A stretch of 64,000 bases of DNA, from NCBI RefSeq assembly GCF_041886205.1, contig NZ_CP169029.1; one strand, given 5' to 3'. The notes beneath the pieces are model-generated. The model did not search any database. It was not told where the DNA came from and worked only from the letters and a program-made list of their open reading frames with translations. Shown here in pieces: positions 19,091 through 37,892 of this stretch. Position 1 is the first letter of the stretch. Every line of letters begins with the position of its first letter. The position numbers and the translations under genes are program-made. The DNA comes from Escherichia coli. GTDB lineage: Bacteria > Pseudomonadota > Gammaproteobacteria > Enterobacterales > Enterobacteriaceae.

Positions 19091-19288
19091 AATCGTGATC
19101 ATTTTTTGTTGACCACTACAAACATTTATGTTTTTTTATGCGAATGAAGTTATCCTTCCTTTCTGCCTGGTTGTCTCATTCATACAGATATCTGGCAGAC
19201 ATAACTTGTTGTGAAAAGTAGATGCTTACCGCATGTCTGATGCACTTTTGTATAAAGGCAAAGTATTTCAGCAAATGGAAATGATTAT

Positions 19289-19789: not shown

Positions 19790-20460
19790 AGCATGAAGAG
19801 TTTGAGGAAACTGAAGAGCTTCAAGCAATGAATCATATAATAAGCAGGCATAAGAGCGACATAACTACAGGCGGAAACAGCGATACAAGAAAACTACTGG
19901 TTTAGGTCACAATGCAGCAAAATGACAAACTCATACGACGGTTCTTGTGAATGATGCGGTGCCTAACCCGCAAATATCAGCATGATTCACCGTAGAACTT
20001 ACTGATACAAGATAACGTAATGATTGAGCTTATCTCATATGGGGTAACGCGCAATAAAAATAGTTGCAACATTGTTTATAATTGTTCAATCTATCTTATT
20101 TTTATTAATATAGTTGAGCTTCTCAACACATTACTTTAAAGTTCTACACTAAAGAGAACAAAATTATCACAACGGATATGGAGATACTTTCAGGCCAGTC
20201 AAACCGGTTTAACTGATATGGTTGAATACACGCTTGACTATGAATGGTTTATGGTATTCAGTCCCGATAACTATGGGGCCAGTTTTGTGTAGCTTTCAAC
20301 TTTAGTTGTTTTCACTCATCATAGATGATGCAATAAAAACATCATTTTCTCACGCATTGCATATTGCTGGTATATCCATATCGCATGTAGCACAGAGTGT
20401 TGACTAAATTATAGAAATATGATTTTTTATCTCATTGACAAAGAAGTTAAGGACCGAGAG

Positions 20461-20886
20461 ATGAGTTTTAATACCACACACGAGAAATCTGAAATCTATC
20501 GTCTGATCCTTAGAGAAAGTGAACTCATTACAGCATGGGTAAAATCTGGAGACACGCCGTCAGCAGTTTACGGAAAACTACGTGATAAAAACCCGGATAT
20601 AATCTTTTCGATAAATGGCTTTTTATATAACCTACGTAACTTTAACTATGCACTATATGAAACAGCCACAAAGAACAAAAGCAAAACAAGGTTAATAATA
20701 CTCAACCATTATGATGATATTGCATCAGCTATCCGTGCTGGTCATACGCTTAAAGGTGTTTACAAACTCGTATGCCCACATATAACATATAACTGTTTTA
20801 TTACACAACTCAGGAAAACCTATCCTGACCTGCATTCTCAGGGTAAAGCGAATCGCAGCAACAAAAACAGAATAATAGCTAACTGA
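20461..20886 (+). CDS. Hypothetical protein (141 aa), AT-rich orphan
   Basis: ORF with AAGGA Shine-Dalgarno 9 nt upstream of ATG at 20461; no recognisable motif. Confidence 0.4.
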   Translation: MSFNTTHEKSEIYRLILRESELITAWVKSGDTPSAVYGKLRDKNPDIIFSINGFLYNLRNFNYALYETATKNKSKTRLIILNHYDDIASAIRAGHTLKGVYKLVCPHITYNCFITQLRKTYPDLHSQGKANRSNKNRIIAN

Positions 20887-21194
20887 TGATATATAAAATG
20901 TTTTACACTATATCTTTTATTGTAACTAAAATTACTTTGATCCTACAAAAAGAAAGGTAAGAAGGGGTTTAAAAGATCATCACGAGACAACTGTTCTAGT
21001 TTTTTAAGCCCCCCATTAATTTAAAAAGCAGATACCAAGCATGAATAAGATTATATAAATTTCATTACATACAATTCATTACTGTCCGGACAAATATTGT
21101 TGTTTATAAAATATAACACACCAATTGTAAAGCTGTGAGCTCATGCTACTTTTAACAGAATTTTTAAACAAGAGGGAATGGGAGACCATTAATA

Positions 21195-21380
21195 ATGCAA
21201 GAAACAAAAACCAACCGCAAATCTAACTGTACAAACTGCAATATTCCTGGATGTAAGCAAACCCCATTTTGCAAGTACTGTCGTAGTGTCAAAGACATAT
21301 CCGGAGCTAGACGCTCTTTATATCTCCATGTAGCAATATTCATCATTATTATTGTACTTACTATTATTTCAGTACTTTGA
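21195..21380 (+). CDS. Hypothetical small Cys-rich protein with hydrophobic C-terminal segment
   Basis: 61 aa; CTNCNIPGCKQTPFCKYC cysteine cluster followed by a hydrophobic stretch (VAIFIIIIVLTIISVL); Shine-Dalgarno-like GGGAG upstream. Confidence 0.25.
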   Translation: MQETKTNRKSNCTNCNIPGCKQTPFCKYCRSVKDISGARRSLYLHVAIFIIIIVLTIISVL

Positions 21381-22053
21381 CAAGCCTTTTTGCACCAACT
21401 GATGTACACAATCAGATTTCAGCCTGTCCGTAATAATTATATTTGATATTACATTAACGCTCTTTAACTGTAGGACAGCACAGCGTAAATTGTTGAATAG
21501 TTCATTTAAAAAATCATAAGGATAAAAAACCAACACTTAAAACATTGTTCTTTTTCAAGAACACATATTTAAATAAAATAACAAACCGCTACCAACTTTA
21601 AAACATTAAAAAAACTGTGAGAGATTACTCTGAAAAGAGTTCATAGCTTTTTAATAAACCATATAAAGTAAACAATACATATGTTAACCCCCCAGAAAAA
21701 ACGTGACAAGAACATAACACCATAAGCAGATACCATATACACGCACACCACCATAACGAATTGGTCACTGGTTCATGACAAACCGTTCATAATTGCTAAA
21801 AATATTAATACACCATCATATAGACTTTCATGTCTAATGAAAAAATATTTATACTCCAGAATAGCCACAACCTTTATAAAATTCAGCTCATTAGAATATA
21901 AATGCATATGCCAATGAACAGAATACATTCTCATCCTTATTGAGGAACATACTGCCTGAGAGAAAAATCATCACTCAGACTTTGAAATAACATTGTCGAA
22001 TTCATATTATACAAAAGGGGAGTCATTCCCCTTTTTTAGCTTAGGTACTCAGT

Positions 22054-22875
22054 TTATAAGGAAATGGCAGAATACTCTGTGTTTATCCATGAGTGTTCCT
22101 TTTCCCAGGTGAATATCCATTTACGTACTGGTCCGGCCATCACGTTAAGGTAATAACTGTCATACCCGGCCATCGTCGCCACCGGGTGGTACCCTTTCGG
22201 CACCATGACCACGTCACGGTTATAGACCGCCATACATTCATCAAGTGTGCGGTCATCGGTATACACCCGCTGCATGCAGAACCCCTGTTCCGGGTTGAGG
22301 CGATGGTAATAGGTCTCCTCCAGATAGCTCTCCTGAGGCGGGTTATTCGTATCGTGTTTATGGCTCGGGTACGAACTGGTACAGCCTTCGTTGGTCCAGA
22401 CCTCGACGACCAGCAGGCTGTCAGCGGGCTTGTCTTCCGGCAAAATATTATGCACATAACGCTGGTTGTGGCCGTTACCGCGCGCTTCGCCATCGATATC
22501 CTGAGGTGCAATCAACCGCGTCGGGTATGTCCCTTTTCCCGGAGCGGTACAGACTGCCAGCTCCAGTTTCGTCAGCGCCTTCACCTGCACTGCCTCCTGC
22601 GGGGTGACGTAAACTGCCCAAGGTTTGATGCGCTCGAACGGGCTCATCCGCTCCCCGATATCAGTAAACTGTGCAGAAGGAGTGCTGATGAAAGCGCGCC
22701 CGGCCACCAGCACCAGACAGCGCTCTTCACTGACAGCGGGCAGCGTCAGTTGCTGCCCTTCCTCAAGTTCATAGGCCTCAAAGCCAACATATCCCCATCC
22801 GGCGCTTTCCGGCGTGACAGACTGAGTCCGCCCCTCAGCGTTCGGCTGTTGCCAGCGTGATAACAAACGTGACAT
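22054..22875 (-). CDS. iolB: 5-deoxy-glucuronate isomerase IolB
   Basis: 273 aa, KduI/IolB cupin-like; located in the iol operon. Confidence 0.8.
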   Translation of the reverse strand: MSRLLSRWQQPNAEGRTQSVTPESAGWGYVGFEAYELEEGQQLTLPAVSEERCLVLVAGRAFISTPSAQFTDIGERMSPFERIKPWAVYVTPQEAVQVKALTKLELAVCTAPGKGTYPTRLIAPQDIDGEARGNGHNQRYVHNILPEDKPADSLLVVEVWTNEGCTSSYPSHKHDTNNPPQESYLEETYYHRLNPEQGFCMQRVYTDDRTLDECMAVYNRDVVMVPKGYHPVATMAGYDSYYLNVMAGPVRKWIFTWEKEHSWINTEYSAISL

Positions 22876-22884
22876 GTCACCTCC

Positions 22885-23811
22885 TCAGATAAGCCCGGCG
22901 TCGCGCGCCAGGCGGCTCAGATTGTTATATCCCAGACGGGCGTAGGTCAGCGGATGGGCGATCGCCGGGTCCTGTTCAGCCTCCACCACCAGCCAACCGT
23001 GATAATCCTGCGTTTTCAGCAGTTGCATAATCGGCGGATAATCCACGCAGCCGTCACCCGGCACGGTAAACACGCCGCTCAGCACCGCGTCGAGGAAGCT
23101 GGTTTTACGGTTTTTGACGTCCGCCAGCACGTCGGCGCGCACATCTTTGCAGTGAACATGATTGATGCGCGATGCCCATCGCTGTGCCACCGCCAACGGA
23201 TCGGCCCCGGCAAAGGTCAGGTGGCCGGTATCCAGCAGTAAACCAACCTCCTCACCCGTGTGGAGCATCAGGTTGTCCACGTCTTGAGCGGACTCAATCA
23301 CCGTGCCCATATGATGGTGGTAAGCAATCTGTACCCCCTGTTGCTGCGTATAGCGGGCGAACACGGTGAGCTTCTCACCATACTCTTTCCAGCATTCCTG
23401 CGGGAAACGTGGGCGCAGGTGAACCGGCGTCTGCTGCTCACCGTGAATGCAGCCACTCACTTCCGCAAAAACCAGTACTTTTGCACCCAGCTCTCGCAGC
23501 AGCGTCAGATGCGACTGCACAGCAGCAATCTCGTCCTCTACACTGCGTTCCAACAGGCGGCCGGAATACCAGCCGGAGACCAACTGCAGGTCGTGGCGCT
23601 GCAAAATGGGGCCGAGCAGGCGCGCTTCTCGCGGGAATTTATTGCCCAGTTCGAAGCCGGCAAAACCGGCCTCTTTCCCTTCACTCAGGCAGGTCTCCAG
23701 AGATGTCTCCGCGCCCAGTGAAGGCAGATCATCGTTCGTCCACGTCAGCGGGTTGATGCCCAGTTGTACACTCATTGTCGTCTCCATTATGCGTGTCCGC
23801 GCTCGCGCCAC
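22885..23811 (-). CDS. iolE: Inosose dehydratase IolE (likely start MSVQLG at 23775)
   Basis: Xylose-isomerase-like TIM barrel; sequence GINPLTWTNDD typical of IolE. Confidence 0.8.
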   Translation of the reverse strand: MARARTRIMETTMSVQLGINPLTWTNDDLPSLGAETSLETCLSEGKEAGFAGFELGNKFPREARLLGPILQRHDLQLVSGWYSGRLLERSVEDEIAAVQSHLTLLRELGAKVLVFAEVSGCIHGEQQTPVHLRPRFPQECWKEYGEKLTVFARYTQQQGVQIAYHHHMGTVIESAQDVDNLMLHTGEEVGLLLDTGHLTFAGADPLAVAQRWASRINHVHCKDVRADVLADVKNRKTSFLDAVLSGVFTVPGDGCVDYPPIMQLLKTQDYHGWLVVEAEQDPAIAHPLTYARLGYNNLSRLARDAGLI

Positions 23812-25691
23812 CAGGCGATAAGCTGCAGGTAGTTGTCCCGGATGCGCGCCACCAACTGCGCATCGTCAATATCGTATTTCAGCCATGCGCGGGAGGCATC
23901 GCCAAACAGCGTGCGCCCCACGGCGAAGCCTTTCACCAGCGCCTGCCCCGCGGCAGCTTTGAAGTCGGCACGCAACTGTTCCGCCGGAGCATCCAGACCG
24001 AGGATCACCACGCCGCGGCAGTGCGGGTCCCGGCGCGCGATAATCTCGCTCAGTGCCGTCCAGCCTTCGGCGGAGAGCGGCGGCAGTTTCCACCAGTCGG
24101 GGTAAATGCCAAGGTTGTAGAAGCGGGAAATGGCACGCAGATAAAGTTCGTCACTGCGCGGCATAGTGGCGGGTAATATCACCTCCAGCAGCAGTTCATG
24201 TCCGGACTGACAGCAGGCGTGGTACACCTCGGCGATTTTCTGCTCCTGCTCCAGACGCAAGCCGTGGGCATCTTCCGGATGGAAAAAGACCAGGCACTTC
24301 ACCACATGCTCCTGCGGCCAACTGATAAGCTGGGTACCAATGTTACCGTGCTCCATCTCCAGCGGACGCGAGCCTGGCAGTTCAATGGGACGACCAATCC
24401 ACCACCCTTCGCCGGTAATGGCGTTCAGCGCATCCTGACCAAAGGTGCCATCGCACAGCAGGCCGGCTTTCCCCTCCAGCCCGGCAGAGCTTGCCGCCTC
24501 TCGGCTGGCCTGCAGGATCAGCTGTTTCAGCGCCGGAATACGCTTAAGCGACGCGCCGCACTGCAGCGCCATATCTTCCAGTTGACTGCGGTGATCGAAC
24601 GCCATCACGCACAGCTCCGGCCATTCGCGGCGGCGGGTGGTCACCCGGTGCAGATGGTTAAGACGCGGGTCAATGTCCGGGCGCGGAACGAGCGCGGCGC
24701 GGGAGAGGTAATCATCCAGCTCAATTTTGCTCGGCATCGCCGGTGCACAGCCGTGGCGCGAGACCACCAGCGCCCCACAGGCGTTGGCGTAGCGGCACGC
24801 CTGTTCCCAGCCCTCGTCGTTCAGGTAACCGCGCAGCAGGCCAGACATAAACGCATCTCCCGCGCCAAGGACGTTAAGCACCTCCACACGCACGCCGGTC
24901 ACCGTCAGGCCGTCATCCAGCCGAGGTGGAATGGCATCGGTATACACCGAACAGCCCAGCGCGCCGCGCTTGCAAACCAGTGTCGCCTTGCTGACGTGGC
25001 GCACCTGCGCCAGCGCCTGCAACGTATCGGTGCTGCCCCCCGCAATGTGAAACTCCTCTTCGGTGCCGACAACGACGTCGAAAAGGTGTAGCACCTCCTG
25101 AAGTTCACGGGTAACCTGTTCGGCAACGATAAAACGCGTTTCGCCGTCTCCTAGAGAGGTTAGTCCCCACAGCACTGGACGGTAGTCGATGTCCAGCACC
25201 GTGCGCACGCCGTGACGGCGGGCGTAATTCAGCGCCGTCAGCACCGCCTCGCGGGTCTGCGGGTGAGAAAGGTGAGTCCCGGTGATGGCAATACACCGTG
25301 CGGAGGCAATGTAGCTTTCGTCCACATCGCTGGCAGTAATCGCCATATCCGCGCAGTTATCGCGATAAAAAATCAGAGGAAAGGTGTCCCGGTCTTTAAT
25401 GCCGAGTAGCACCAGCGCCGTGAGGCGTTCTTTATCGGTGATCAGATGGCTGGTATCGCAGCCCACCTGGTTTAACTCTTCCCGCAGGAAGCGCCCCATA
25501 TGTTCATCGCCAACGCGCGCCAGCATTGACGAGCGTAAGCCCTGACGCGCGGTACCGTACGCCACGTTGCCGGACGAGCCGCCGAGATATTTGGCGAAGC
25601 TCGACACATCCTCCAGGCGGGCACCAATCTGCTGGCTGTAGAGGTCTACCGCCACGCGGCCCATGCATATCACATCAAACTGCTTTTCCAC
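23787..25691 (-). CDS. iolC: 5-dehydro-2-deoxygluconokinase IolC with C-terminal DUF2090/aldolase-like extension
   Basis: 634 aa; N-terminal PfkB-type sugar kinase (GAGDAF motif) plus ~300-aa C-terminal domain. Confidence 0.75.
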   Translation of the reverse strand: MEKQFDVICMGRVAVDLYSQQIGARLEDVSSFAKYLGGSSGNVAYGTARQGLRSSMLARVGDEHMGRFLREELNQVGCDTSHLITDKERLTALVLLGIKDRDTFPLIFYRDNCADMAITASDVDESYIASARCIAITGTHLSHPQTREAVLTALNYARRHGVRTVLDIDYRPVLWGLTSLGDGETRFIVAEQVTRELQEVLHLFDVVVGTEEEFHIAGGSTDTLQALAQVRHVSKATLVCKRGALGCSVYTDAIPPRLDDGLTVTGVRVEVLNVLGAGDAFMSGLLRGYLNDEGWEQACRYANACGALVVSRHGCAPAMPSKIELDDYLSRAALVPRPDIDPRLNHLHRVTTRRREWPELCVMAFDHRSQLEDMALQCGASLKRIPALKQLILQASREAASSAGLEGKAGLLCDGTFGQDALNAITGEGWWIGRPIELPGSRPLEMEHGNIGTQLISWPQEHVVKCLVFFHPEDAHGLRLEQEQKIAEVYHACCQSGHELLLEVILPATMPRSDELYLRAISRFYNLGIYPDWWKLPPLSAEGWTALSEIIARRDPHCRGVVILGLDAPAEQLRADFKAAAGQALVKGFAVGRTLFGDASRAWLKYDIDDAQLVARIRDNYLQLIAWWRERGHA

Positions 25692-25703
25692 GTTGAACCC
25701 TCT

Positions 25704-26837
25704 TCAGACAATGTCATTCACGTTCAGCCAGAGGCCCTGCTGGTGTGAGAGTGCGATGGCATCCAGCACACGCGAGACCTTCCAGCCCTCTTCGAAGTCC
25801 GGCCACATCGGTGCGTCGGTGGCGATGCCGTCTACCAGATCACGCACTTCCACCGTTTTTTGATCGTTAAAGCCGATACCATGACCTGCGCCCATGCAAA
25901 ACGCGCCGTAATCCGGGTGTGCCGGACCGACCAACAGTGTCCGGAACCCCTGACGGTTCACCGGATCATCATGCAGATAGAGCTTTATCTCTGCCATCCG
26001 CTCTTGGGTAAAACTGATCGCTCCTTTGGTACCAGTAATGACGTATGACAGCCCCATCTTGCGGCCGCAGGCGACACGGGAAGTTTCAATGACGCCCTGC
26101 GCCCCGCCCGCAAAGCGCACCATCGCGTGGGCCTGATCTTCATTTTCCACGGTGACCATTTCCGACGATCCGGCCTTTGCCGGACGTGCCGGTACCACAA
26201 TTTTCAGATCGCCACAAACCTGCTCAATCTCTCCCACAAGATACTGGGCCATATTGACGATATGTGCCGCCAGGTCACCCAGAGCCCCCAGTCCGGCGGT
26301 CTCTTTAAAACAGTGCCAGTGAATAGGGGAAAGCGGGTCGGCCATATAGTCTTCGTTGTGGGTTCCGTAGAAGTGGATCACCTCACCAATTTCGCCGCGC
26401 GCAATAATCTCTTTCGCCAACTGTGCCGTCGGGTTTTTCATGTAATTGAAACCCACCAGCGTTTTCACCCCTGCCCGCTTCGCAGCGTCGACCATCTCAC
26501 GCGCGTCGTGGGCATTCAGTGCCAGCGGCTTTTCCGAATAGACGTGCTTGCCGTGGCGGATCGCCTCCAGCGCCATCTCTTTGTGAAGATGGTTAGGGGA
26601 GCAAATATCCACCACATCAATGGCCGGGTCGACCACGAGCACCCGCCAGTCTCCGGTTGAGCGATTGAAGCCAAACGCCTGCGCGCGTTCTGCCGCCAGC
26701 GCCGGATTCACCTCAGCCACCATCTCGCGCACCAGTTTGCCGCGCAGATTGAACACCGTCGGTGCCTGGGCATAGGCAATGGCATGCGCCTTGCCAATAT
26801 ACCCGGTGCCAATCAATCCAATACGAACCTCTTTCAT
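25704..26837 (-). CDS. Gfo/Idh/MocA-family oxidoreductase (second inositol dehydrogenase-like enzyme)
   Basis: Rossmann motif IGLIGTGYIGKAH; ~377 aa from MKEVRIG. Confidence 0.75.
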   Translation of the reverse strand: MKEVRIGLIGTGYIGKAHAIAYAQAPTVFNLRGKLVREMVAEVNPALAAERAQAFGFNRSTGDWRVLVVDPAIDVVDICSPNHLHKEMALEAIRHGKHVYSEKPLALNAHDAREMVDAAKRAGVKTLVGFNYMKNPTAQLAKEIIARGEIGEVIHFYGTHNEDYMADPLSPIHWHCFKETAGLGALGDLAAHIVNMAQYLVGEIEQVCGDLKIVVPARPAKAGSSEMVTVENEDQAHAMVRFAGGAQGVIETSRVACGRKMGLSYVITGTKGAISFTQERMAEIKLYLHDDPVNRQGFRTLLVGPAHPDYGAFCMGAGHGIGFNDQKTVEVRDLVDGIATDAPMWPDFEEGWKVSRVLDAIALSHQQGLWLNVNDIV

Positions 26838-26845
26838 CGTGATCC

Positions 26846-27874
26846 TCACAGTGCGCCGCGACGGCTCTTGGCATAGGTGTCGAATGCCACCGCCAGAACG
26901 ATAATTAATCCGGTGATAATTTGCTGGTAGTAGGCCGAGACGTTCATCAGTACCAGGCCATTAATCAGAATGCCCATGATGATGGAGCCGATGATAGTGC
27001 CGCCGATGCGCCCATATCCCCCCATCAACGACGTGCCGCCAATAACCACCGAGGCAATAACACGCAGCTCAAAGGAGATCCCGGCAACCGCCTCAGCGCT
27101 CCCCAGACGAGCGCTCAGGATGAAGCCCGCCAGCCCCGCCAGACAGCCAATCAGCACATAGACGCTAACCAGCACACGCTTCACGTTTACCCCAGCCAGA
27201 CGTGCCGCCTCCGGGTTGCCACCGATGGCATAGACGAAGCGCCCCCAACGGGTTTTATGCAGTGCCAGATAACCACCAATGGCAACGATGGCGAAGATCC
27301 AGATCGGAATGGAGATGCCGAGCAATTCCCCTCGTCCCCACCAGCGATAACCCTGATCGAAGCCGGCAATCGGCGCACCGTCGTTAATCACGAGCGTCAG
27401 ACCACGCCAGATGGTCATCCCGCCAAGGGTGACGATGAACGGTGGTAGGCGCAGGCGGGTGACGCCCAGACCGTGCAGGAAGCCAATCGCTGTACCCATG
27501 GTCAGACAAATCCCCAGCCCAATCAGCCAGCTCATACCGCCCCAAGCGTTCGGATCGACTGTGGTGAAATTGTCGCCTTTGATCACGTACGCCGCTGTCA
27601 TGGCGCACACTGCCAGAATAGAGCCCACGGAGAGGTCGATCCCAGCGGTCAGAATGACGAAGGTCATCCCCACGGCCATGATCCCGTAGATGGAGACTTC
27701 GGTCAGGATGTTGAAAATATTGCGTTCAGAGAAAAAATTACTGTTCTGCGACTGAAAGAAGATCAGCAGCAGGATCATGAAAATCAGTACCCCGAAGCGC
27801 TCGAAGAAGGCAATGGGATCGATGCGTCCGGCGCGTTTTACCGGGACCTGCGTTTTAGGAATCATCTGCGTCAT
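26846..27874 (-). CDS. Sugar ABC transporter permease (ribose/monosaccharide type)
   Basis: 342 aa, multiple hydrophobic segments, start overlaps upstream gene. Confidence 0.8.
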   Translation of the reverse strand: MTQMIPKTQVPVKRAGRIDPIAFFERFGVLIFMILLLIFFQSQNSNFFSERNIFNILTEVSIYGIMAVGMTFVILTAGIDLSVGSILAVCAMTAAYVIKGDNFTTVDPNAWGGMSWLIGLGICLTMGTAIGFLHGLGVTRLRLPPFIVTLGGMTIWRGLTLVINDGAPIAGFDQGYRWWGRGELLGISIPIWIFAIVAIGGYLALHKTRWGRFVYAIGGNPEAARLAGVNVKRVLVSVYVLIGCLAGLAGFILSARLGSAEAVAGISFELRVIASVVIGGTSLMGGYGRIGGTIIGSIIMGILINGLVLMNVSAYYQQIITGLIIVLAVAFDTYAKSRRGAL

Positions 27875-27885
27875 GAGAAACTCCG

Positions 27886-29433
27886 TTATGCCGCGTTCAG
27901 GGCGTTGTGGTTGATAGCCATCATCGTCATCAGCCGTTCTTCGTTAGCGTCGTCACCGTGGATCTCGCCAGTTAACCGGCCTTCACTAAGGGTGATGATC
28001 CGGTCAGACACCGCCATCACTTCAGGCAGATCGGAGGAGATCACGATCACCGCCACGCCCTTTTTCGCCATATCAAACAGCACCTGGTGCACTTCCGATT
28101 TGGTTCCAACGTCGATGCCACGTGTCGGCTCATCGACAATCAACACCCGTGGATTGAGCGCCATGCAGCGCGCGAGGATAACTTTCTGCTGGTTGCCGCC
28201 AGAGAGCTTACGCACCTCCTGCGTGCTGTTGACCATTTTGATCTGCAGCGCCTGGCGGTAGGACTCAATCAGGTCGTCCTCTTTGCGGGTATTCACAAAC
28301 CAGCGCCACTGCAACAGCGAGGAGAGGCAGGAGAGCGACAGGTTGTCGCGAATCGACAGACCCAGCACCGCCCCCTCTTTTTTGCGATCTTCCGGCACCA
28401 GCGCCAGCCCTTGCTCCAGCGCATAAAGTGGGTCACGCGGCTGGTACGGCACGCCGTCCAGCTCAAAGCTGCCGGTGGTAAAGGCGTCGGCGCCAAACAG
28501 GCAGCGCGCTACCTCAGTACGACCAGCCCCCACCAGCCCAGCGATACCCAGAACTTCCCCTGCATGGACGTGAAAACTGATGTCATGCAGGGCGATGCCG
28601 TGTGGATCCAGCGGCGGTTTTTCCCGGCTTAACCCCTTCACCGACAAACGGACAGGTTTGTCTTCATGGTGGGTTTCGCTGGCAGGGCGGCGGTTAAAGG
28701 CCACATCACGCCCTACCATCAGGCGGATCAACTGCTCTACGTTCGTCTCCGTCACTGCGCCGGTGCCGGTGAAACGGCCATCCTGGAAAACGGTGAAACG
28801 ATCGCAAAGCTGGAAAACTTCATGCAGACGGTGAGTAACGTAAATAATGCTCACGCCGCGGTTTTTAAGCTCCCGCACCACGCGGTGCAGGCTTTCCACC
28901 TCGCTGTCACTCAGGGCGGCGGAGGGTTCATCCATGATGATCAGCCTGGCATTGAGGGTCAGCGCCCGGGCAATCTCCACCATCTGCTGCTGGGCCACGC
29001 TCAGACGGGCGACTGGCGTGGTGGGTGCGACATTCAGTTGCAGATAATCGAGAATCACCTGCGCTTCCTGATTGACCGCTTTTTCGTCGACGATCAGGTT
29101 ACGTTTACGCGGTTCGCGTCCGAGAAACATGTTTTCCGCAACGGTCATATTGGGCAGCAGGTTGAATTCCTGATAGATGGTGATAATGCCCTTGTTCTGC
29201 CGTTCTACCGGGGAGTCGTCCACCGGCAGCGTTTCGCCATTGAACCAGATCTCCCCGCGCGTTTGTGGCTGTGCGCCCGCGAGTGCCTTCAACAGCGTGG
29301 ATTTCCCAGCGCCGTTTTCGCCCAGCAAAGCGTGAATTTCACCCGTGCCGACGGTGAGCTGGGCGCTGCTCAGCGCCCATACGCCGGAAAAGCTTTTTGC
29401 CAGGTCGGTTACTTTCAGTAAGGGTTGCGACAT
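27886..29433 (-). CDS. Sugar ABC transporter ATP-binding protein (duplicated ABC domains)
   Basis: 515 aa; Walker A GENGAGKST, signature LSGGNQQK. Confidence 0.85.
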   Translation of the reverse strand: MSQPLLKVTDLAKSFSGVWALSSAQLTVGTGEIHALLGENGAGKSTLLKALAGAQPQTRGEIWFNGETLPVDDSPVERQNKGIITIYQEFNLLPNMTVAENMFLGREPRKRNLIVDEKAVNQEAQVILDYLQLNVAPTTPVARLSVAQQQMVEIARALTLNARLIIMDEPSAALSDSEVESLHRVVRELKNRGVSIIYVTHRLHEVFQLCDRFTVFQDGRFTGTGAVTETNVEQLIRLMVGRDVAFNRRPASETHHEDKPVRLSVKGLSREKPPLDPHGIALHDISFHVHAGEVLGIAGLVGAGRTEVARCLFGADAFTTGSFELDGVPYQPRDPLYALEQGLALVPEDRKKEGAVLGLSIRDNLSLSCLSSLLQWRWFVNTRKEDDLIESYRQALQIKMVNSTQEVRKLSGGNQQKVILARCMALNPRVLIVDEPTRGIDVGTKSEVHQVLFDMAKKGVAVIVISSDLPEVMAVSDRIITLSEGRLTGEIHGDDANEERLMTMMAINHNALNAA

Positions 29434-29484
29434 CAGCCTGCTCCTTATTTATGGGGAGCCGCCCGTACGGCGGCTCCAGACAAA

Positions 29485-30414
29485 TCAGTTACCGGCCTCA
29501 GCAATACGCTCAGCCTGTTGCAGGTTCTCTTTGGTGATCAGCGTCGGCGGATAGTCCGCACCGGTGATAGTTTTTTTCTCACGCACGTTAGCCACCAGTT
29601 GGCTCATCGCCGTGGTCACCGCAAAGCCGGGACGCTGATCCGCCGTAACCGCCAGCCAGCCGTCGCGCACGCGGGCCAGTGCTTCCGGTACCGCATCAAA
29701 ACCGGTGACCAGGATTTCACCCGGTTTCACACCCTGACTCTGCAGCGCTTCAATCGCCCCCAGCGCCATATCATCGTTGGCAGAGAGGATCACCTGAGGA
29801 CGTTTTGGCAGCGACGGCAAAACGCTTTCGACAATGCGCATCCCTTCCGAGCGCATCCAGTTGCCGGTCTGATCGGCGACGATCTTGTACATATCCCCGC
29901 CAGCCTTCAGGCTGTCGCGGATCCCTTTGGTGCGTTCAATGTTGGAGGAGGAACCCGGTTGACCGGTCAACAGAATGATCTCCGCGCCGTTGGGGAATTT
30001 GGTTTTGACGAAGTCGCCAATCGCCTGGCCGCCCTTGTAGTTGTTGGCACCAAAGTGCGGCACTTTTTTCTGGCTGTCGACAGAGCGGTCAAGCGTAACG
30101 ACCGGCAGCTTCGTATCCTGAATTTCATCTACCGCACTGGAGACCGCGTTCACATCGTTCGGGGAGACAATAAAGCCCTGCGCACCACGGGTGATGGCGT
30201 TTTCCAGGTCAGCCACCTGCTTCGGTGAGCTGCCCTGACCGTCCAGTACCTGAAGTTTCACCCCCATCTCTTTTGCGGCTTTCACCGCCGTGCGCTGCAT
30301 GTGAACTTCAAACGGCATGGCCAGGTTTGGCGTACTGAAAACAATTTGCTCGTTTTCGGCTATGGCGGCCCCGGATGTCATGGCGATTAGGGCGGCTAAG
30401 ATCAGTTTTTTCAT
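29485..30414 (-). CDS. Periplasmic sugar-binding protein of the ABC importer (putative inositol-binding)
   Basis: Signal peptide MKKLILAALIAMTSGAAIA; ATG at 30412-30414; the longer upstream ORF extension is rejected. Confidence 0.8.
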   Translation of the reverse strand: MKKLILAALIAMTSGAAIAENEQIVFSTPNLAMPFEVHMQRTAVKAAKEMGVKLQVLDGQGSSPKQVADLENAITRGAQGFIVSPNDVNAVSSAVDEIQDTKLPVVTLDRSVDSQKKVPHFGANNYKGGQAIGDFVKTKFPNGAEIILLTGQPGSSSNIERTKGIRDSLKAGGDMYKIVADQTGNWMRSEGMRIVESVLPSLPKRPQVILSANDDMALGAIEALQSQGVKPGEILVTGFDAVPEALARVRDGWLAVTADQRPGFAVTTAMSQLVANVREKKTITGADYPPTLITKENLQQAERIAEAGN

Positions 30415-30445
30415 TATTATGTCTCTCTGTGTAGGGTTGTTGTGT

Positions 30446-31432
30446 TTAGAGGACGATCTCACGCTGGCAACGCAGTGATTCCAGCGCTTTATCCGCGAGG
30501 TACAGCGCACGTTCACCATCATCGCCGCTGCAATCAGGCACCGCTTCGCCGCGCAGAACCGCAACAAAGTGCTCCCATTCCGCTGCGTAAGCGGATTTGT
30601 AGCGTTGCAGGAAGAAGTGTTCCGGCAGCGCGCTGGTGCAACCCTGTTTGCCGTAGTGCTGCACCTGGTTTTCAAGGATATTGCCCGCGCACAGCAGCCC
30701 TTCGGAACCGTGTAGCTCCAGGCGCTGGTCGTAGCCGTATGAAGAGCGGCGACTGTTGACGATGGTCGCCATCGCGCCGGAGGCATATTTCAGAACGATA
30801 AATGCGGTGTCGATATCTCCCGCTTCGCCAATCGCCGGATCCACCAGATTGCTGCCCTGGGCATACACCGACACCGGCTCTTCACCCATGATGAAGCGTG
30901 CCATGTCAAAGTCGTGGATGGTCATATCACGGAACATGCCGCCGGAAACACGCACGTACACCGCAGGCGGTGGAGACGGATCGCGGGAGATGATCAGCAG
31001 TGATTCCGGTTTGCCGATACGCCCGGCCTGAGTGTCGGTTTTCACGCGACGGAACTGTGGGTCAAAGCGGCGGTTAAAACCGATAAACAGCGGTACGTCA
31101 TACTCTTTGACCACTTTCAGGCAGTCGCGTACGCGGGCAAGATCAAGGTGTACCGGTTTTTCACAGAAAATGGCTTTGCCGTAACGGGCGGCCATTTCAA
31201 TCAGATCCGCGTGGGTGTCGGTCGCGGAGGCGATCAATACGGCATGAACGTTCGGGTCGGTCATCGCCTCATCCAGGCTCTGCTGGCGCGCCTGATACTG
31301 TGTCGCGAGACGCGTGGCGAACTCCTGATTCGGGTCTACCACAGACCAGAGCGTGGTCGCACTATGGCTGGCGATGTTAGCTGCATGTACCTGGCCAATT
31401 CGGCCAGCGCCCAGTAAAGCAATGTTAAACAT
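30446..31432 (-). CDS. iolG: myo-Inositol 2-dehydrogenase IolG (Gfo/Idh/MocA family)
   Basis: 328 aa; N-terminal Rossmann motif ALLGAGRIGQVHA. Confidence 0.8.
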   Translation of the reverse strand: MFNIALLGAGRIGQVHAANIASHSATTLWSVVDPNQEFATRLATQYQARQQSLDEAMTDPNVHAVLIASATDTHADLIEMAARYGKAIFCEKPVHLDLARVRDCLKVVKEYDVPLFIGFNRRFDPQFRRVKTDTQAGRIGKPESLLIISRDPSPPPAVYVRVSGGMFRDMTIHDFDMARFIMGEEPVSVYAQGSNLVDPAIGEAGDIDTAFIVLKYASGAMATIVNSRRSSYGYDQRLELHGSEGLLCAGNILENQVQHYGKQGCTSALPEHFFLQRYKSAYAAEWEHFVAVLRGEAVPDCSGDDGERALYLADKALESLRCQREIVL

Positions 31433-31626
31433 AACGGCTCCCGGTGTTGATGAATGCGGTGAACTAACGACACTACAAATAAAACATTTATTTCATTTTT
31501 ATAAATAGTGAAAATTATATTTTGAGTGACAGTTAACACTTTTGAGATGTATTAGATAAATTTTGTTATCAATCTCACAACGCCGAGGAAGATATGTCCC
31601 TCCATTACAAGGGGGGGAGGGAATAA

Positions 31627-31656
31627 AAACTGTACCATCCCCTCTCCCGTTGGGAG
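31627..31656 (-). terminator. Perfect 14-bp-stem palindrome, probable terminator after iolD
   Basis: CCATCCCCTCTCCC-GTT-GGGAGAGGGGATGG; T-rich run follows on the minus strand. Confidence 0.5.
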
Positions 31657-31716
31657 AGGGGATGGGTGAGAGGAAAAAAGAAAAATGAAATGAAAATTTC
31701 GTTACGACAGGAAAAC

Positions 31717-33642
31717 TCAATACTGACGAGCTTTTTTCACCTGAGCCTGTGTTTGCTCGGCGGCCTGGCGCACTGCTGGCGACTCTGCCACCTGTGCGTT
31801 GCCGGTTCGCCACCATGACGCGTAATCATGGGTCATGGTTTTTGGTAGCACTTTGATGTCGAGGAGCGTCGGTCCCGGGTGAGCGCGCGAGGCTTCCAGC
31901 GCCGCCAGCAGGCTTTTCTCATTATGTACCCGCCATGCGCGGCAACCGTAGCTTTCCGCGTTTTGCGCAAAATCGACCTTCACCAACGGCCCGTCAAGCT
32001 GACCTGTTTTCGGATTACGGTAACGATTTTCTGTGCCAAAACTCCCCATTCCGTGCCCCATCTGCAGGTTATTAATGCAGCCAAAGCTGGCGTTATCAAA
32101 CAGCAGAATGGTGACCTTAATTCCCTCCTGTACGGCAGTTTGCAGCTCTGAGTGCAGCATCATGTACGAACCATCGCCTACCATGGCATACACCGGCTGC
32201 TGAGGTTTTGCCAGCTTCGCACCAATAGCCGCTGCGACCTCATACCCCATGCAGGAGTAACCATACTCCAGATGGTAACTGTCAGGCGTTTTAACCTGCC
32301 AGAGGCGTTGCAAATCCCCTGGCAGCGATCCGGCCGCCCCCACCACAATGGCGTTATCCTCAATATGCTGGTTAATGAGCCCCAACACCCGCGTCTGGGT
32401 CAGGTGTGTGTTGAGCGTTTCACCGTATTCCATTAGCTGTGCATCAAGGTGCCCTGCCACTTCGGGAACGTCGTCAGGATGCCACTGGCGTTCCCACAGT
32501 CGACAGCATTCATCGTGCCAAGCGGATTTCGCATGGGCAATCGCCTCCCCCCAGCCACTACGATAATCTTTCAGTGCGTGGGTCAACGCTGTCAGACCAG
32601 TTCGGGCATCGGCAATGAGCGCGGTGGCATCCAGCTTCAAGGAGTCAAACTCAGCCACGTTCAGCAGCAGGAACTCGACGTCGGGATGAGAAAAGAGCGC
32701 CTTAGAGCCGGTAGTAAAATCCGTCAGGCGCGTGCCGATGCCAATCACTAAGTCAGCCTGCGGCGCAAGCTGGTTGGCAGCCATTCCGCCCGTCACGCCC
32801 ACCCCGCCCAGATTAAGCGGGTGGTCACTTACCAGCGCCCCCTTACCGGCCTGGGTTTCGGCAAACGGCAATTGCAGCACTTCAACAAATTCCCGTAACG
32901 CCTCATGCGCACCGGAGTAACGCACGCCACCGCCGCACACCACCAGTGGACGGCGCTTGCGGGAAATCAATGCATGAGCCTGCGCCAGTCGCTGCGGGTC
33001 AGGCGGACGGCGTTCAATATGATGCACCCGACGCGCAAAGAAACTCAGGGGGTAATCCCAGGCCTCCCCCTGCACATCCTGAGGTAGGCAAATGGTCACC
33101 GCCCCTGTATTTGCGGGGTCAGTAAGCGTTCGCATCGCACTTAACATCGCGCTCATAAGCTGTTCAGGACGGTTGATGCGGTCCCAGTAGCGGGAAACCG
33201 GGCGGAAGCAATCGTTGGTACTGATGCTGAGATCGTGATACTGCTCGATCTGCTGCAACACGGGGTCAGGCTGGCGGCAGGCGTAGATATCCCCTGGCAG
33301 TAGCAGCAGTGGAATGCGGTTCGCCGTGGCCGTCGCTGCCGCCGTCACCATATTGGCAGCGCCAGGCCCAACGGATGAGGTGACAGCAAAAATACGCTGA
33401 CGGCGATGCTGTTTGGCGAATCCCGTCGCCATATGGGCAATCCCCTGCTCGTTACAGCCTTGCATCACCTGCAGATGACCAGGATCCTGCTCCAGCGCCT
33501 GGCCGATACCGAGCACGTTACCGTGCCCAAAGATCGTTGCCACGCCCTCCACAAAGGGCGTTTCTTTACCATCAACGCTAACATATTGTTGGTTAAGAAA
33601 TCTGACCAGAGCCTGGGCCATAGTCATACGTTCGGTTTGCAT
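31717..33642 (-). CDS. iolD: 3D-(3,5/4)-trihydroxycyclohexane-1,2-dione hydrolase IolD (TPP-dependent)
   Basis: 641 aa; thiamine-diphosphate enzyme motifs (GDGSYMM). Confidence 0.85.
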
Positions 33643-33653
33643 AAAACCCCCTG

Positions 33654-35159
33654 TCAGCCCAGAGTCGGCATGGAGAACGCTGCACCTGTCTCCTGCTGCA
33701 TTTCCGGCCAGCGTGCAGTGATGGTTTTCATTCGGGTGTAGAAACGCACGCCATCGTTCCCGTGAACATTGAGCGCGCCAAAAATGGAACGTTTCCAGCC
33801 ACCGAAACAGTGGAATGCCATTGGCACCGGGATCGGCACGTTGACCCCCACCATACCCGCCTGCACCTCTTCACAAAAGCGGCGTGCGCAGCCACCGTCA
33901 CGGGTGAAAATGGCCGAGCCATTACCATATTCGTGTCGGTTAATCAGATCCACCGCGCTGGCGTAATCTGCTACGCGCACCACAGAAAGCACCGGTCCGA
34001 AAATTTCTTCTTTATAGATGGTCATCTCCGGGGTGACGTTATCGAACAGAGTCGGCCCAACGAAATAGCCCTGCTCGTGCCCTTTCACGCTGAGGCCACG
34101 CCCGTCCACACGCAGGTTAGCCCCCTGAGCTTCGCCACTGTCGATATAGCCCAACACTTTGCTGCGGTGTGCGGCGGAGATCAGCGGCCCCATCTCGTTT
34201 TCTGGCGTCTGGTTCAGGCCAGGTCCGACGCGCAGCGAAGCGATCTTTTTTTCCAGCCGGGCGCAGAGTTCATCAGCCGTTTTATCGCCAACCGCCACCA
34301 CCACGGAAAGCGCCATGCAGCGTTCTCCTGCCGCACCATAAGCTGCGCCCATTATGGCGTTTGTCGCCATATCCATATCGGCATCCGGCATTAAAATGCA
34401 GTGGTTTTTCGCACCGCCGAGCGCCTGACAGCGCTTACCGTGGGCGGACGCAGTCAGGTACATGTATTCGGCAATCGGTGTTGAACCGACAAAACTGACG
34501 GCCTGCACGCGCGGGTCGGTCAGGAGCACATCAACGGATTCTTTATCGCCCTGCACCACGTTGAATACGCCGTCCGGCAGGCCTGCCTCTTTCAGCAGTT
34601 TCGCCAGCGCGAGCGCCAGAGACGGATCTTTTTCCGACGGTTTCAGCACGAAGGTGTTGCCTGTCGCCAGAGCTATCGGGAACATCCACATTGGCACCAT
34701 CGCCGGGAAGTTAAACGGCGTGATCCCGGCGCAGACCCCGAGCGGCTGCATCAGTGAGTGGCTGTCGACACCTGTGCCAACGTTCGCAGAGTGTTCGCCT
34801 TTTTGCAGATGTGGGATGCCGCAGGCGAATTCTACCACTTCCAGACCACGGGTCAGTTCACCTACTGCATCTGAGAAGACCTTACCGTGTTCTTCACTGA
34901 TAATACGGGCCAGACGCACCATATTCTCTTCAAGCAACGCTTTGAAGCGGAACATCACACGCGCGCGCTTGAGTGGAGCAAAACGTGCCCACGCGGGAAA
35001 CGCCAACTGTGCTGCGGCAATCGCCTGTTCGGTTTCCTGTGCCGTACTCATCACCACCTGGCGAATCTGCTCGCCAGTGGCCGGGTTGAAGATAGCCTGA
35101 ATGCGCTGGCCTGAACCGGTGACACATTCGCCGTGAATAAAATTCGCTACCGTCTCCAT
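33654..35159 (-). CDS. iolA: Methylmalonate-semialdehyde dehydrogenase IolA/MmsA
   Basis: 501 aa aldehyde dehydrogenase with catalytic Cys context and FTGST-like motif. Confidence 0.85.
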
Positions 35160-35449
35160 CCTTAACCTCTCGCTGTTGATACGTGACTGTTACCTGAACG
35201 TTATGTACTGAACACTATATATGAAACAAATATTCCATTTTAAGTTGAAATAAAATAAATAATGATTATTGTGATCAAGGATGGATTTTTATGTGAACAG
35301 CCAGCATCACTGACTCAGCCTGAGCTATTAGGAGTTTCGGGCGAGGAAATGACTGAAGCTTCTGTTTCATTTTTGCTGCCAGGTGGATGGCCAACATTTA
35401 AAAGACGCGGTTTTGCGTTTAGAATCATGAGACTGGATAGGGGGATAAC

Positions 35450-36310
35450 ATGACGACAGCAACCAGCCTGAACGAACTACAAAAGCAAATCCGCGATCGC
35501 TACGATAGCCTGAGCAAAAGGCTGCAGCAGGTCTCCCGCTATGTACTGGATAATACGAACAGTGTCGCGTTTGATACGGTTGCGGTCATAGCCGAACGTG
35601 CCGATGTTCCACCCTCTACACTGATTCGTTTTGCCAATGCCTTTGACTTCACCGGCTTCAACGAAATGAAACAGTTATTTCGTATGCACCTGGTGGAGGA
35701 AACCGCCAGCTACAGCGATCGTGCGCGACTGTTCCGCGAAATGGAGAGCGAAGCCGTACCTGAAACGCCGCTCGATATTTTGCAGGAGTTCGCCAGTTCG
35801 AACTCGCAGGCGCTGCAGCAGTTGGCTGCCCGCGCCGAACCGGAGATGCTGGAGCACGCCGTACAACTACTGGCCTACGCCGACACCATTTACATCGCCG
35901 GATTACGCAGATCCTTTAGCATTGCTGCTTATCTTACCTATGCTTTAAGCCACCTAGAGTGCCGCCCTATTCTGCTTGACGGGATGGGCGGCATGCTGCG
36001 CGAACAGATCAGCCGTATTAAGGCGTGCGACATTGTGGTGTCGATCAGTTTCTCGCCGTACGCGGAAGAAACGGTGATGGTCAGCAAAACCGCCGCCAGC
36101 GTCGGCGCTCGGCAGATTGTGATTACGGATAGCCAGATCAGCCCACTGGCAACGTTCAGTGATCTCTGCTTTGTGGTGAAAGAGGCTCAGGTGGACGCAT
36201 TTCGGTCTCAGTCGGCAACATTGTGTCTGGTGCAGTCGTTAGTGGTCGCGCTAGCTTACCGTTTAGGAGATAAAAAACATAATAATACCCAGGAAAACAG
36301 TAACCAATAA
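35450..36310 (+). CDS. iolR: RpiR/MurR-family transcriptional regulator IolR (HTH + SIS domain)
   Basis: 286 aa; divergent from iolA. Confidence 0.75.
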   Translation: MTTATSLNELQKQIRDRYDSLSKRLQQVSRYVLDNTNSVAFDTVAVIAERADVPPSTLIRFANAFDFTGFNEMKQLFRMHLVEETASYSDRARLFREMESEAVPETPLDILQEFASSNSQALQQLAARAEPEMLEHAVQLLAYADTIYIAGLRRSFSIAAYLTYALSHLECRPILLDGMGGMLREQISRIKACDIVVSISFSPYAEETVMVSKTAASVGARQIVITDSQISPLATFSDLCFVVKEAQVDAFRSQSATLCLVQSLVVALAYRLGDKKHNNTQENSNQ

Positions 36311-36504
36311 TAACCAATGAACTCCTCCCCCGAGTCCATATAAGAGTAAATGATTCGGTGCCAGTAGCGATACAGACTTCAGATTGAATATCAACTGTAC
36401 TGCTATCTCCCTAAAAGGTCATGCCCCATGTGAGCGTACAACGAGAGCCTTAATCCTTAATAGCGAAGAAGATTTCTCTAGTAGGTGGTAATGTAACCCA
36501 GATA

Positions 36505-36898
36505 TAACGGCTTCTTTAAACAGTTTATTTACCATCGTTTTCTTACCTAGCAGGCGCTGAAGTTCTTTAATTTTATTCATGGCGGCAGCAAGTTCAGAGG
36601 CCGGAATACCCTGTTCTTCGGCTGTCACAGTAGTGAAGCTTCCTTCAAGGTAATGATACGCCAGAGAAATAACTGGCTGGCAGCCACACCGTGTTGCCGG
36701 GCAACAAGGGAGACCGTCATTCCCGGTTCAAAACTCTGCTGAACAATAGCGATCTTTTCCTGTGTAGTACGCCGTCTGCGTTTCTCCGGTCCTAAGACAT
36801 CAATCATCTGCTCTCCAATGACTAGTCTAAAAACTAGTATTAAGACTATCACTTATTTAAGTGATACTGGTTGTCTGGAGATTCAGGGGGCCAGTCTA
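36505..36898 (-). mobile_element. IS2 remnant (left end with partial orfA/insC)
   Basis: Terminal sequence TAGACTGGCCCCCTGAATCTCCAGACAACCAGTATCACTTAAATAAGTGATAGTCTTAATACTAG (reverse complement) and orfA translation [50 protein letters not shown]; homology is lost after ~KEAV. Confidence 0.65.
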
Positions 36899-37328
36899 TA
36901 CACTACCTCAGGTAGATGATGAGATCAGATACAGGGATCAACTGACGGTGAGCGCAGGCCCGCGAGTGCCCTGATTTAGCGCTGGTTTTGCTTTCCCATC
37001 GAAGGGCCCATACATCATCACGCCCGCGAAACAGTCGACAAAATAACGCAACTTTCTCATCCGTGGATAATACGGAAACGCACTGCACAGGACTCTGCGG
37101 TTTACGTCACCATTCAATCCCATAAGCTTCAAGTTATGTTTGCCCTCAGTGCAGCTAATTCATCACTGTCAGATTTATGAACCATAGTCGTTACCTGTAT
37201 CCGATCCACTGAGGCACCACGGCAGAAATTCGGGTCCCCTACACTGATGACAAAGCCGCCCTCTTCTGCCTATTAACTCAAGCACCTCCCAACAACTTAC
37301 AGAAACTTAATCCTAATACAACTGTAAT

Positions 37329-37892
37329 TCAGTTGTGTCGTGGTCGGCCGCGGTTGCTTTTTTCGGGAAGCCTGCTACGGCCCAGAATAATACCGTGTTC
37401 TTTCTGATCCTGTTTAGCCAGATAGCTAAGGGCGTAACGTAAGTTGTCTACCGCGGACTTATCACTATAGTGCATCACGTGATCGATACGCACCGGGTAT
37501 TTGTCTTTAGCCCGGCAAAGGTGAAAGTAACCCTCCCCTTCCGTGATCTGCCTCCAGATATCTCCCAGTTGCCTGGATATCTGATAAGAGTTCTTGTGAC
37601 GTTGCCCATCCAGGTAGCCGACAAAATGAATATGAAGCCCTTTGTTTTGTGTATATTCCATTACCCAGTAATATCCCGCCAACATCGATTGGGTTTCGCT
37701 AAGTAAGCGGTATATTTCCATACACATACTGTGCTTACAGCCATGACCAAAACTGGGCGTGTCTTTCCTGTAGGCAAAATCAATTCTGAAAGGTAACAGT
37801 TTAGAAAAACGTTGAAACAGACCTTCCATGTGTTCATTCACGTCTTTCAGAATCATGAAGTCCATTTCGTAATTGGGATTAGCATTATACAT
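37329..37892 (-). CDS. YagK/YfjJ-family (inovirus Gp2-like) protein
   Basis: 187 aa; motif GLHIHFVGYLDG; typical partner of AlpA/YfjI in CP4-57-like elements. Confidence 0.65.
   Translation of the reverse strand: MYNANPNYEMDFMILKDVNEHMEGLFQRFSKLLPFRIDFAYRKDTPSFGHGCKHSMCMEIYRLLSETQSMLAGYYWVMEYTQNKGLHIHFVGYLDGQRHKNSYQISRQLGDIWRQITEGEGYFHLCRAKDKYPVRIDHVMHYSDKSAVDNLRYALSYLAKQDQKEHGIILGRSRLPEKSNRGRPRHN

Follow-up and report, generated by a model that had tools for sequence, protein, structure and literature searches.

In the gut, phytate from the diet releases inositol, a nutrient which typical Escherichia coli cannot use, and inositol-positive E. coli make up about 1% in biotyping. Here, we analyze a block of myo-inositol catabolism (iol) genes at positions 22054-36310 of a 64,000-nucleotide (nt) stretch of E. 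coli DNA (contig NZ_CP169029.1); this whole stretch is called the window in the following. Closely related systems have been described. Chromosomal iol clusters are found in the Enterobacter cloacae complex, Lelliottia, and Citrobacter (IolCatGC sensu Weber & Fuchs 2022). In Caulobacter crescentus and Sinorhizobium meliloti, the ATP-binding cassette (ABC) importer IbpA-IatA-IatP is genetically needed for growth on inositol, and the operator of the RpiR-type regulator IolR in Caulobacter is GGAA-N6-TTCC (PMC2597717). In Salmonella enterica, the iol genes are silenced by H-NS and also controlled by CRP and others, with lags of up to 34 h (PMC10783015, PMC5349611). Among 20,632 E. coli genomes, fewer than 2% were iol-positive, and strain ED1a carries a Salmonella-like cluster (PMC9430895).

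The block in the window and the clusters of the E. cloacae complex, Lelliottia, and Citrobacter agree in their eleven genes and in the order and orientation of these. They show 84-89% nt identity, 86-99% amino acid (aa) identity per gene, the same promoter footprints, and the same type of palindromic element between iolD and iolG. The difference lies in the surroundings, as the E. coli block is embedded in AT-rich island DNA laden with insertion sequences (IS), whereas the relatives' clusters are in their own chromosomal contexts. Like the Caulobacter/Sinorhizobium module (PMC2597717), the block has a CUT2 importer homologous to IbpA, an RpiR-type IolR, and, ahead of catabolic and transport genes, candidate boxes of palindrome-like form whose halves are six bases apart. 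Unlike in those species, the genes form one compact 14-kb block in which iolG and the transporter genes would belong to one operon, and the candidate boxes are more AT-rich than in Caulobacter (GAAA-N6-TTCC and GAAA-N6-TTTT). With the Salmonella islands GEI4417/4436 and the E. coli ED1a type, it has in common the core genes iolA, iolB, the iolC fusion, iolD, iolE, and iolG, a homologous IolR, and the placement in an accessory island. The Salmonella type has, in addition, IolT1/IolT2, ReiD, SrfJ, IolG2, and IolI1 and is split into several scattered operons; those genes are absent from the window block, and iolD is only ~69% identical at the DNA level between the two types.

We consider it very likely that the block is an intact, horizontally acquired myo-inositol module of the Enterobacter/Lelliottia/Citrobacter type, carried as cargo in a mosaic tyrosine-integrase island. 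Its genes are already correctly annotated in RefSeq and in dozens of public genomes and are mentioned in the literature. The pathway, the type of ABC importer, the type of regulator, and the rarity in E. coli were all established beforehand, so the finding is real but ordinary. What is added here is descriptive: the three cluster types present in the species, the donor clade, the layout of operons and operators, and the movement of the unit between islands.

Of the eleven closely spaced genes, which cover ~14.2 kb, ten are on the minus strand, and iolR runs divergently on the plus strand. All open reading frames (ORFs) are complete and have no internal stops, and the block matches its annotated counterpart in the bovine strain E. 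coli ZYB62 at 100% DNA identity. Each of the six catabolic enzymes exceeds a curated whole-protein cut-off of NCBIfam, and the E-values of the hidden Markov model matches (1e-96 to 1e-284) exclude chance. In the following lines, the score is given against the cut-off of the respective model.

iolB: 22054-22875, minus strand, 5-deoxy-glucuronate isomerase of 273 aa (TIGR04378, 321.5 vs 205); identical to WP_000088748.1.
iolE: 22885-23775, minus strand, myo-inosose-2 dehydratase (TIGR04379, 428.5 vs 290); start codon according to RefSeq.
iolC-DUF2090 fusion: 23787-25691, minus strand, 5-dehydro-2-deoxygluconokinase plus aldolase (NF047869, 942.5 vs 600; TIGR04382, 430.5 vs 300).
iolG: 30446-31432, minus strand, inositol 2-dehydrogenase (TIGR04380, 440.9 vs 355).
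iolD: 31717-33642, minus strand, thiamine diphosphate-dependent ring-opening acylhydrolase (TIGR04377, 934.1 vs 715).
iolA (mmsA): 33654-35159, minus strand, CoA-acylating malonate/methylmalonate-semialdehyde dehydrogenase (TIGR01722, 672.9 vs 448.5).

The IolC fusion consists of a PfkB domain (residues 6-321) and a DUF2090 domain (residues 324-631) according to Pfam. The aldolase function is assigned to the DUF2090 half, which would replace IolJ and is not a class II IolJ homologue; for Caulobacter, in contrast, an unlinked IolJ-like aldolase was proposed (PMC2597717). As the aldolase step and IolA are both encoded, the route to dihydroxyacetone phosphate and acetyl-CoA is complete.

The genes for import and a further dehydrogenase lie between iolG and iolC:

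Binding protein: 29485-30414, minus strand, IbpA-like, predicted periplasmic inositol-binding protein with a signal peptide (N-terminus MKKLILAALIAMTSGAAIA).
ABC ATPase: 27886-29433, minus strand, IatA-like, with two ATP-binding cassettes (AraG/XylG/RbsA-like, 500-529 bits, under all cut-offs).
ABC permease: 26846-27874, minus strand, IatP-like, CUT2 (RbsC-like, 279.9 bits, under the cut-off of 398).
Second dehydrogenase: 25704-26837, minus strand, Gfo/Idh/MocA family, 377 aa, kept at the same position in all related loci.

The three importer genes are on one strand, and their products are ribose-like CUT2 components, none of which reaches a cut-off for ribose, xylose, arabinose, allose, or galactose. 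The permease is 96-99% identical in the Lelliottia, Enterobacter, and Citrobacter loci and 90-96% identical in remoter genera. Among solved structures in the PDB, the binding protein is closest to 4rxm (454 bits), which we take to be a myo-inositol complex from Mannheimia, followed by Caulobacter IbpA (4irx, 240 bits), and ribose-binding proteins score ~134 bits. From these matches, the importer is predicted to be specific for inositol. The best solved relative of the second dehydrogenase is 5ya8, described as [quoted passage not shown] (327 bits); hence, it is probably a scyllo-inositol-type dehydrogenase. The NCBIfam, Pfam, and PDB matches bear out the initial annotation of a full pathway (IolG, IolE, IolD, IolB, IolC, an aldolase domain, and IolA) together with IolR and an ABC importer. 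The coordinates and the listed genes were correct, but the list had omitted the eleventh gene, i.e., the second dehydrogenase.

Alternatively, the module might mainly serve for another cyclitol or sugar, e.g., scyllo-inositol, D-chiro-inositol, pinitol, or a rhizopine-like compound. We regard this as quite improbable. The extra dehydrogenase is indeed nearest to a scyllo-inositol/L-glucose dehydrogenase, the binding protein weakly matches a rhizopine-binding family (47.8 bits vs a cut-off of 420), and the ABC components reach no curated cut-off. However, the IolG score exceeds the equivalog threshold set for inositol 2-dehydrogenase, the binding protein is much nearer to 4rxm and Caulobacter IbpA, and the block has no IolI-type isomerase for D-chiro-inositol, unlike the Salmonella-type cluster. 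Moreover, other isomers would enter the same pathway and would supplement myo-inositol as a substrate instead of replacing it.

For a myo-inositol module, the following course is proposed. The periplasmic binding protein would capture inositol, and the two-cassette ATPase and the permease would import it. IolG would then oxidize inositol to 2-keto-myo-inositol, to which the second dehydrogenase probably channels scyllo-inositol as well. Dehydration by IolE and ring opening by IolD would be followed by isomerization by IolB. The PfkB half of the IolC fusion would phosphorylate the product and the DUF2090 half would cleave it to dihydroxyacetone phosphate and malonate semialdehyde, which IolA would convert to acetyl-CoA and CO2. 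Carriers of the block should thus be able to grow on myo-inositol.

When both intergenic regions were aligned for 15-16 related loci, which span Enterobacter to Dickeya, sharply conserved blocks stood out inside otherwise diverged spacers. The regulatory features are:

iolR: 35450-36310, plus strand, RpiR-family repressor (Pfam HTH_6, residues 10-86; SIS, residues 141-267).
Candidate IolR operator upstream of iolG: 31479-31496, minus strand, ATGAAATAAATGTTTTAT, 18 bp, GAAA-N6-TTTT; block conserved in 16 loci.
CRP-like site upstream of iolG: 31564-31579, minus strand, TGTGAGATTGATAACA, 9 of 10 positions of TGTGA-N6-TCACA; conserved across genera.
Intrinsic terminator after iolD: 31635-31665, minus strand, found by a terminator scan, with a 14-bp G+C-rich stem followed by a U-run.
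Divergent iolA/iolR control region: 35160-35449, of which ~80 bp are conserved across 15 loci.
Candidate IolR operator in this control region: 35221-35238, ATGAAACAAATATTCCAT, 18 bp, GAAA-N6-TTCC.
Conserved TGTGA-containing block in this control region: 35270-35285.

IolR shares 62% identity over 268 aa with a protein annotated as "myo-inositol utilization transcriptional regulator IolR" in the Salmonella-like cluster in E. coli Ecol_AZ146. The ATGAAACAAATATTCCAT box is located within the spacer of the predicted minus-strand iolA promoter TTAAAA-18-TATAGT (35243-35214). According to this layout, IolR would repress two catabolic promoters at 18-bp GAAA-N6-TTYY boxes, a phosphorylated pathway intermediate bound to the SIS domain would release it, and the CRP-like sites would add catabolite control. 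The operator and CRP roles of these conserved sites are predictions. The 117 nt around the iolD terminator (31600-31716) fold at -32.9 kcal/mol (z = -4.2). Because of the conserved promoter footprints and this terminator, we infer three transcription units: iolR alone, iolA-iolD, and iolG-binding protein-ATPase-permease-dehydrogenase-iolC-iolE-iolB. Within the iol block, no known RNA was detected when 18000-49000 was scanned with Rfam.

The terminator (region 31590-31670) is itself a palindromic unit of the CCCCTCTCCC...GGGAGAGGGG type, and one to several copies of this unit are present in the iolD-iolG spacer of Enterobacter and Lelliottia loci. It looks like a repetitive extragenic palindromic (REP)-type repeat inherited from the donor genome.

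The composition of the block and its flanks argues for acquisition from outside. The GC content is 0.571 for the iol block, 0.344 for the left flank (19001-22053), and 0.415 for the right flank (36311-39200); at third codon positions (GC3), the block has 0.669 compared with 0.595 for neighboring core genes. The features next to the block are as follows:

AT-rich left flank travelling with the block: 19001-22053, with a MarR-family pseudogene, a hypothetical gene, ~1.2 kb of non-coding DNA, and a hairpin.
MarR-family pseudogene: 19289-19789, plus strand.
Hypothetical gene: 20461-20886, plus strand.
Hairpin: 22017-22030.
IS2-like remnant: 36497-36925, minus strand, ~430 bp, left end and decayed orfA, with frameshifted InsC-like ORFs; annotated as a transposase pseudogene.
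Tyrosine integrase: 45699-46901, minus strand, 400 aa, at the right end of the island; annotated as tyrosine-type recombinase/integrase WP_000279878.1.

The remnant is ~90-92% identical to IS2-family copies over ~36497-36902, and its extension to 36925 follows the left end of IS2 as we presume it to be. Further left of the block are several IS66, IS3, and IS110 copies, an orphan uhpC, and a DarTG/type I restriction-modification cluster. Right of the remnant follow decayed backbone genes, an AlpA-like gene, a YfjI-like gene that an IS4-family element has divided in two, and the integrase. The latter scores 185.9 bits with NF007246, below the cut-off of 434, and adjoins the core genes phoH-efeBOU-putPA-rut. 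The window has no tRNA genes and no copy of the serX 3' end as an attachment repeat (up to three mismatches), and the tRNA-plus-direct-repeat layout of a tRNA-associated integrative island is absent from it. The surrounding island is mosaic and probably rearranged. With 1.5 kb of each flank joined as a query, no genome was found in which the flanks are adjacent without iol.

The breakpoints of the module are bracketed only, to 22017-22080 on the left and 36262-36497 on the right. As blastn homology stops at ~22080 and ~36262, we considered that the acquired segment might end inside the 3' ends of iolB and iolR. This was rejected because the C-terminal tails of both proteins vary between genera and because the IolB tail in the window (WINTEYSA) is still like the native WINRDYPA. 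A composite transposon was rejected as well, with a truncated IS2-like fragment on the right and an IS fragment of a different kind (an integrase-core pseudogene) nearest on the left.

The same left flank adjoins iolB in strains ZYB62, C10, and 744 and in an assembly labelled ATCC 8739 (NZ_CP043852.1), in differing islands. In total, the iol unit was found in at least four contexts: a serX-side island, an island ending at phoH, an argW island with fec, and beside cdiBA. The whole unit of truncated MarR gene, hypothetical gene, AT-rich spacer, iol, and truncated IS2 recurs in the serX-side island of ZYB62, beside cdiBA in C10, and in the argW island beside fecIRABCDE in NZ_CP043852.1. It is truncated in the argW island of strain 744, a deletion variant in which only iolB and part of iolE are left.

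In the argW island, the iol unit is ~2 kb from fecIRABCDE. This closeness could be one reason why fec and iol are enriched together in multidrug-resistant dairy isolates. We do not conclude that the type culture ATCC 8739 is iol-positive, as no other record so named is among the matches. The label of NZ_CP043852.1 may be wrong.

A donor was sought in one genome per species for 100,044 species representatives. Over window positions 22082-36270, the same 11-gene order was found in:

Lelliottia nimipressuralis, 89.4% nt identity.
Enterobacter sichuanensis, 88.9% nt identity.
Enterobacter cloacae, 88.7% nt identity.
Citrobacter, ~84% nt identity.

The order is also kept, with decreasing identity, in Yokenella, Pluralibacter, Edwardsiella, Yersinia, Buttiauxella, Cedecea, and Dickeya. 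Per gene, the aa identity to the best loci is 92-99%, which at 89% nt identity indicates purifying selection. Since none of the sampled species reaches 95% nt identity, the donor is narrowed down no further than to the Enterobacter/Lelliottia clade or a relative outside the sample.

A plasmid-borne version has the same eleven genes in the same order. It is 88.5-88.9% identical to the window over 22080-36258 and 91-92% identical to Enterobacter and Lelliottia; judged by these identities, it is an acquisition separate from the chromosomal E. coli block. The p14EC033c type is found on conjugative plasmids and in pigs and humans, compared with cattle and poultry for the chromosomal block. As E. 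coli, Yersinia ruckeri, and Salmonella all have plasmids with related blocks, such plasmids are plausible vehicles for the module.

On p14EC033c (NZ_CP024150.1, IncFIA/IncFII; 7000-31000), the iol block is between duplicated ardA/umuD segments and beside IS30. Just beyond iolR, a stretch of 290 bp shares 82% identity with an IS fragment that, in the chromosomal version, is located ~3 kb to the left of the block.

An iolD search in 5,426 complete E. coli genomes gave 59 positive genomes, which belong to three unrelated cluster types. The chromosomal block of the window type is present in 44 genomes (iolD 98.9-100% identical; ~19-20 from cattle, 6-7 from poultry, and 7 from humans). The plasmid version occurs in seven genomes (iolD 84%, block 88.8%) from pigs and humans, on IncF plasmids where typed. 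The Salmonella/ED1a type, with iolT1/iolT2, reiD, srfJ, iolG2, and iolI1, was found in eight genomes, nearly all of them human (iolD ~69%). At an identity of at least 99%, the window block is present in 44-49 of the 5,426 genomes (~0.8-0.9%), where the two counts of 49 (identity at least 99%; coverage at least 80%) may cover different records. On 43 chromosomes, iolD is full-length and 98.9-100% identical, most records of at least 99% hold the whole block in one place, and the carriers' blocks are at least 99.6% identical to one another.

Several statements of the initial annotation can be judged from these data, which confirm its observation and support its interpretation. Inositol use is not a core trait of E. 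coli, in line with 59 of 5,426 genomes here and the published value of fewer than 2% of 20,632 (PMC9430895). The contrast between the ABC importer and the IolT transporters of the major facilitator superfamily holds within the species, as the Salmonella-like cluster, which includes iolT1/iolT2, reiD, and srfJ, is present in eight E. coli genomes. A GC-rich block with AT-rich DNA on its left was correctly described (0.571 vs 0.344), and the suggested comparison of GC and codon usage placed the block above its neighbors in both GC and GC3. Horizontal acquisition agrees with this composition, with the four or more contexts, with the near identity of the carriers, and with the same gene order in Lelliottia, Enterobacter, and Citrobacter. 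A fragment is indeed present on the right, but it is IS2-like and not IS2 itself, and integrative-element genes do lie on the right as well. Three small corrections apply: the eleventh gene mentioned above, the status of iol as a 14.2-kb cargo in a mosaic, IS-degraded island and not an island of its own, and the absence of a tRNA gene or attachment repeat from the window.

The same data make it extremely improbable that the cluster is ancestral to E. coli and was lost from most lineages. We found no specific support for such an origin beyond the fact that relatives in the Enterobacteriaceae often carry the cluster (PMC9430895). The prevalence of ~1%, the three unrelated cluster types in the species, the position in differing islands beside integrases and IS elements, the copies with at least 99.6% identity in unrelated strains, and a GC content of 0.57 between flanks of 0.34 and 0.41 all argue against it.

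Some points weigh against an acquired, functional myo-inositol module. No donor with at least 95% nt identity was present among the 100,044 species representatives, the best being 89.4%. The second dehydrogenase reaches no NCBIfam cut-off, and its top model is levoglucosan dehydrogenase (365 vs 650). Both candidate operators resemble GGAA-N6-TTCC but deviate from it, and as the search pattern was derived from the two boxes themselves, conservation alone is evidence for them. No growth, transport, or expression data for E. coli carriers were found in the searchable literature. Finally, the iol promoters are AT-rich; in view of this and of the H-NS silencing in Salmonella, E. coli may express the genes weakly or in a bistable manner.

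The last points lead to the main rival explanation, in which the cluster is genuine but cryptic in E. coli due to silencing, for example by H-NS, or tight repression by IolR. Carriers would then show no growth on inositol in ordinary conditions, and the block would be maintained by hitch-hiking with the island. In favor of this, AT-rich DNA makes up the two control regions and the entire left flank, the Salmonella genes are under H-NS, CRP, and others with the long lags mentioned above (PMC10783015, PMC5349611), no phenotype of E. coli carriers is reported in the searchable literature, and a truncated variant exists in strain 744. On the other hand, 11 of 11 ORFs are intact, the whole block is kept in most of the records of at least 99% identity with full-length iolD on 43 chromosomes, and the promoter footprints are conserved. 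In addition, iolABCDEG-iatA is enriched in multidrug-resistant dairy isolates (22% vs 3%; PMC10604827), which suggests a trait under selection. Hence, we consider a cryptic cluster unlikely.

If the module is functional, it could give ~1% of strains a private carbon source, and many of the carriers are from cattle and poultry. This would be relevant for the colonization and persistence of livestock-associated and multidrug-resistant lineages (PMC10604827). The iol block would also explain the occasional inositol-positive E. coli in biotyping. As a tentative extension, for which we see some chance but which we would not expect to hold in full, the ~18-kb unit from the truncated MarR gene to the truncated IS2 may be a livestock-gut adaptation module. 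It would be shuffled between E. coli islands (serX, phoH, argW-fec, and cdiBA) by recombination of shared backbones and would widen the diet to myo-inositol and, by way of the second dehydrogenase, scyllo-inositol from feed phytate, and its linkage to fec in the argW island would have a share in the co-enrichment of iol and fec reported for multidrug-resistant calf isolates.

Further observations concern the island and its surroundings. In ZYB62, the island is ~70 kb (2893409-2963517), with serX at the integrase-distal end and the yeeS-T-U/cbtA end beside this tRNA gene; the integrase adjoins ycdU, the reverse of the usual layout. The same integrase adjoins phoH in the window strain, and the pga-ycdU segment is missing from that side. 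The IS4-family element in the window (~39200-40540; transposase ORF 39252-40370, NF033592 with 133 bits vs a cut-off of 115) separates the halves of the YfjI-like gene (38859-39176 and 40530-41660). This gene is intact in ZYB62, so the window derives from another strain than its best match.

Next to the integrase is an ORF of 605 aa (43694-45511, plus strand), which is very AT-rich, has no NCBIfam match, and is hypothetical in related genomes. Between the integrase and the core genes, tandem repeats extend over 47004-47494, with overlapping ORFs that encode repeated peptide motifs. The equivalent region is labelled "RtT sRNA" in strain YZ22PE106; in the window, it has no match at the Rfam gathering score. 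This repeat region could be the true attachment region of the island. Antisense to phoH, the Rfam family Ysr251, a Yersinia antisense small RNA, matches 48811-49000 (plus strand) with 176.5 bits vs a gathering score of 100, and the match runs to the end of the scanned stretch (18000-49000).

At the left edge of the window, a defense cluster encodes a DarT fragment together with DarG (51-1654), the R subunit of a type I restriction system (1673-4768), and a peptidase of family M48 (4768-5484), as identified by correspondence with the ZYB62 annotation. The orphan uhpC-like sensor gene of the major facilitator superfamily (13326-14648, minus strand) is located in a segment of 33-34% GC between IS66/IS110 and IS3 copies, far from uhpAB and uhpT, and accompanies the iol unit in ZYB62, C10, C11, and JML285.

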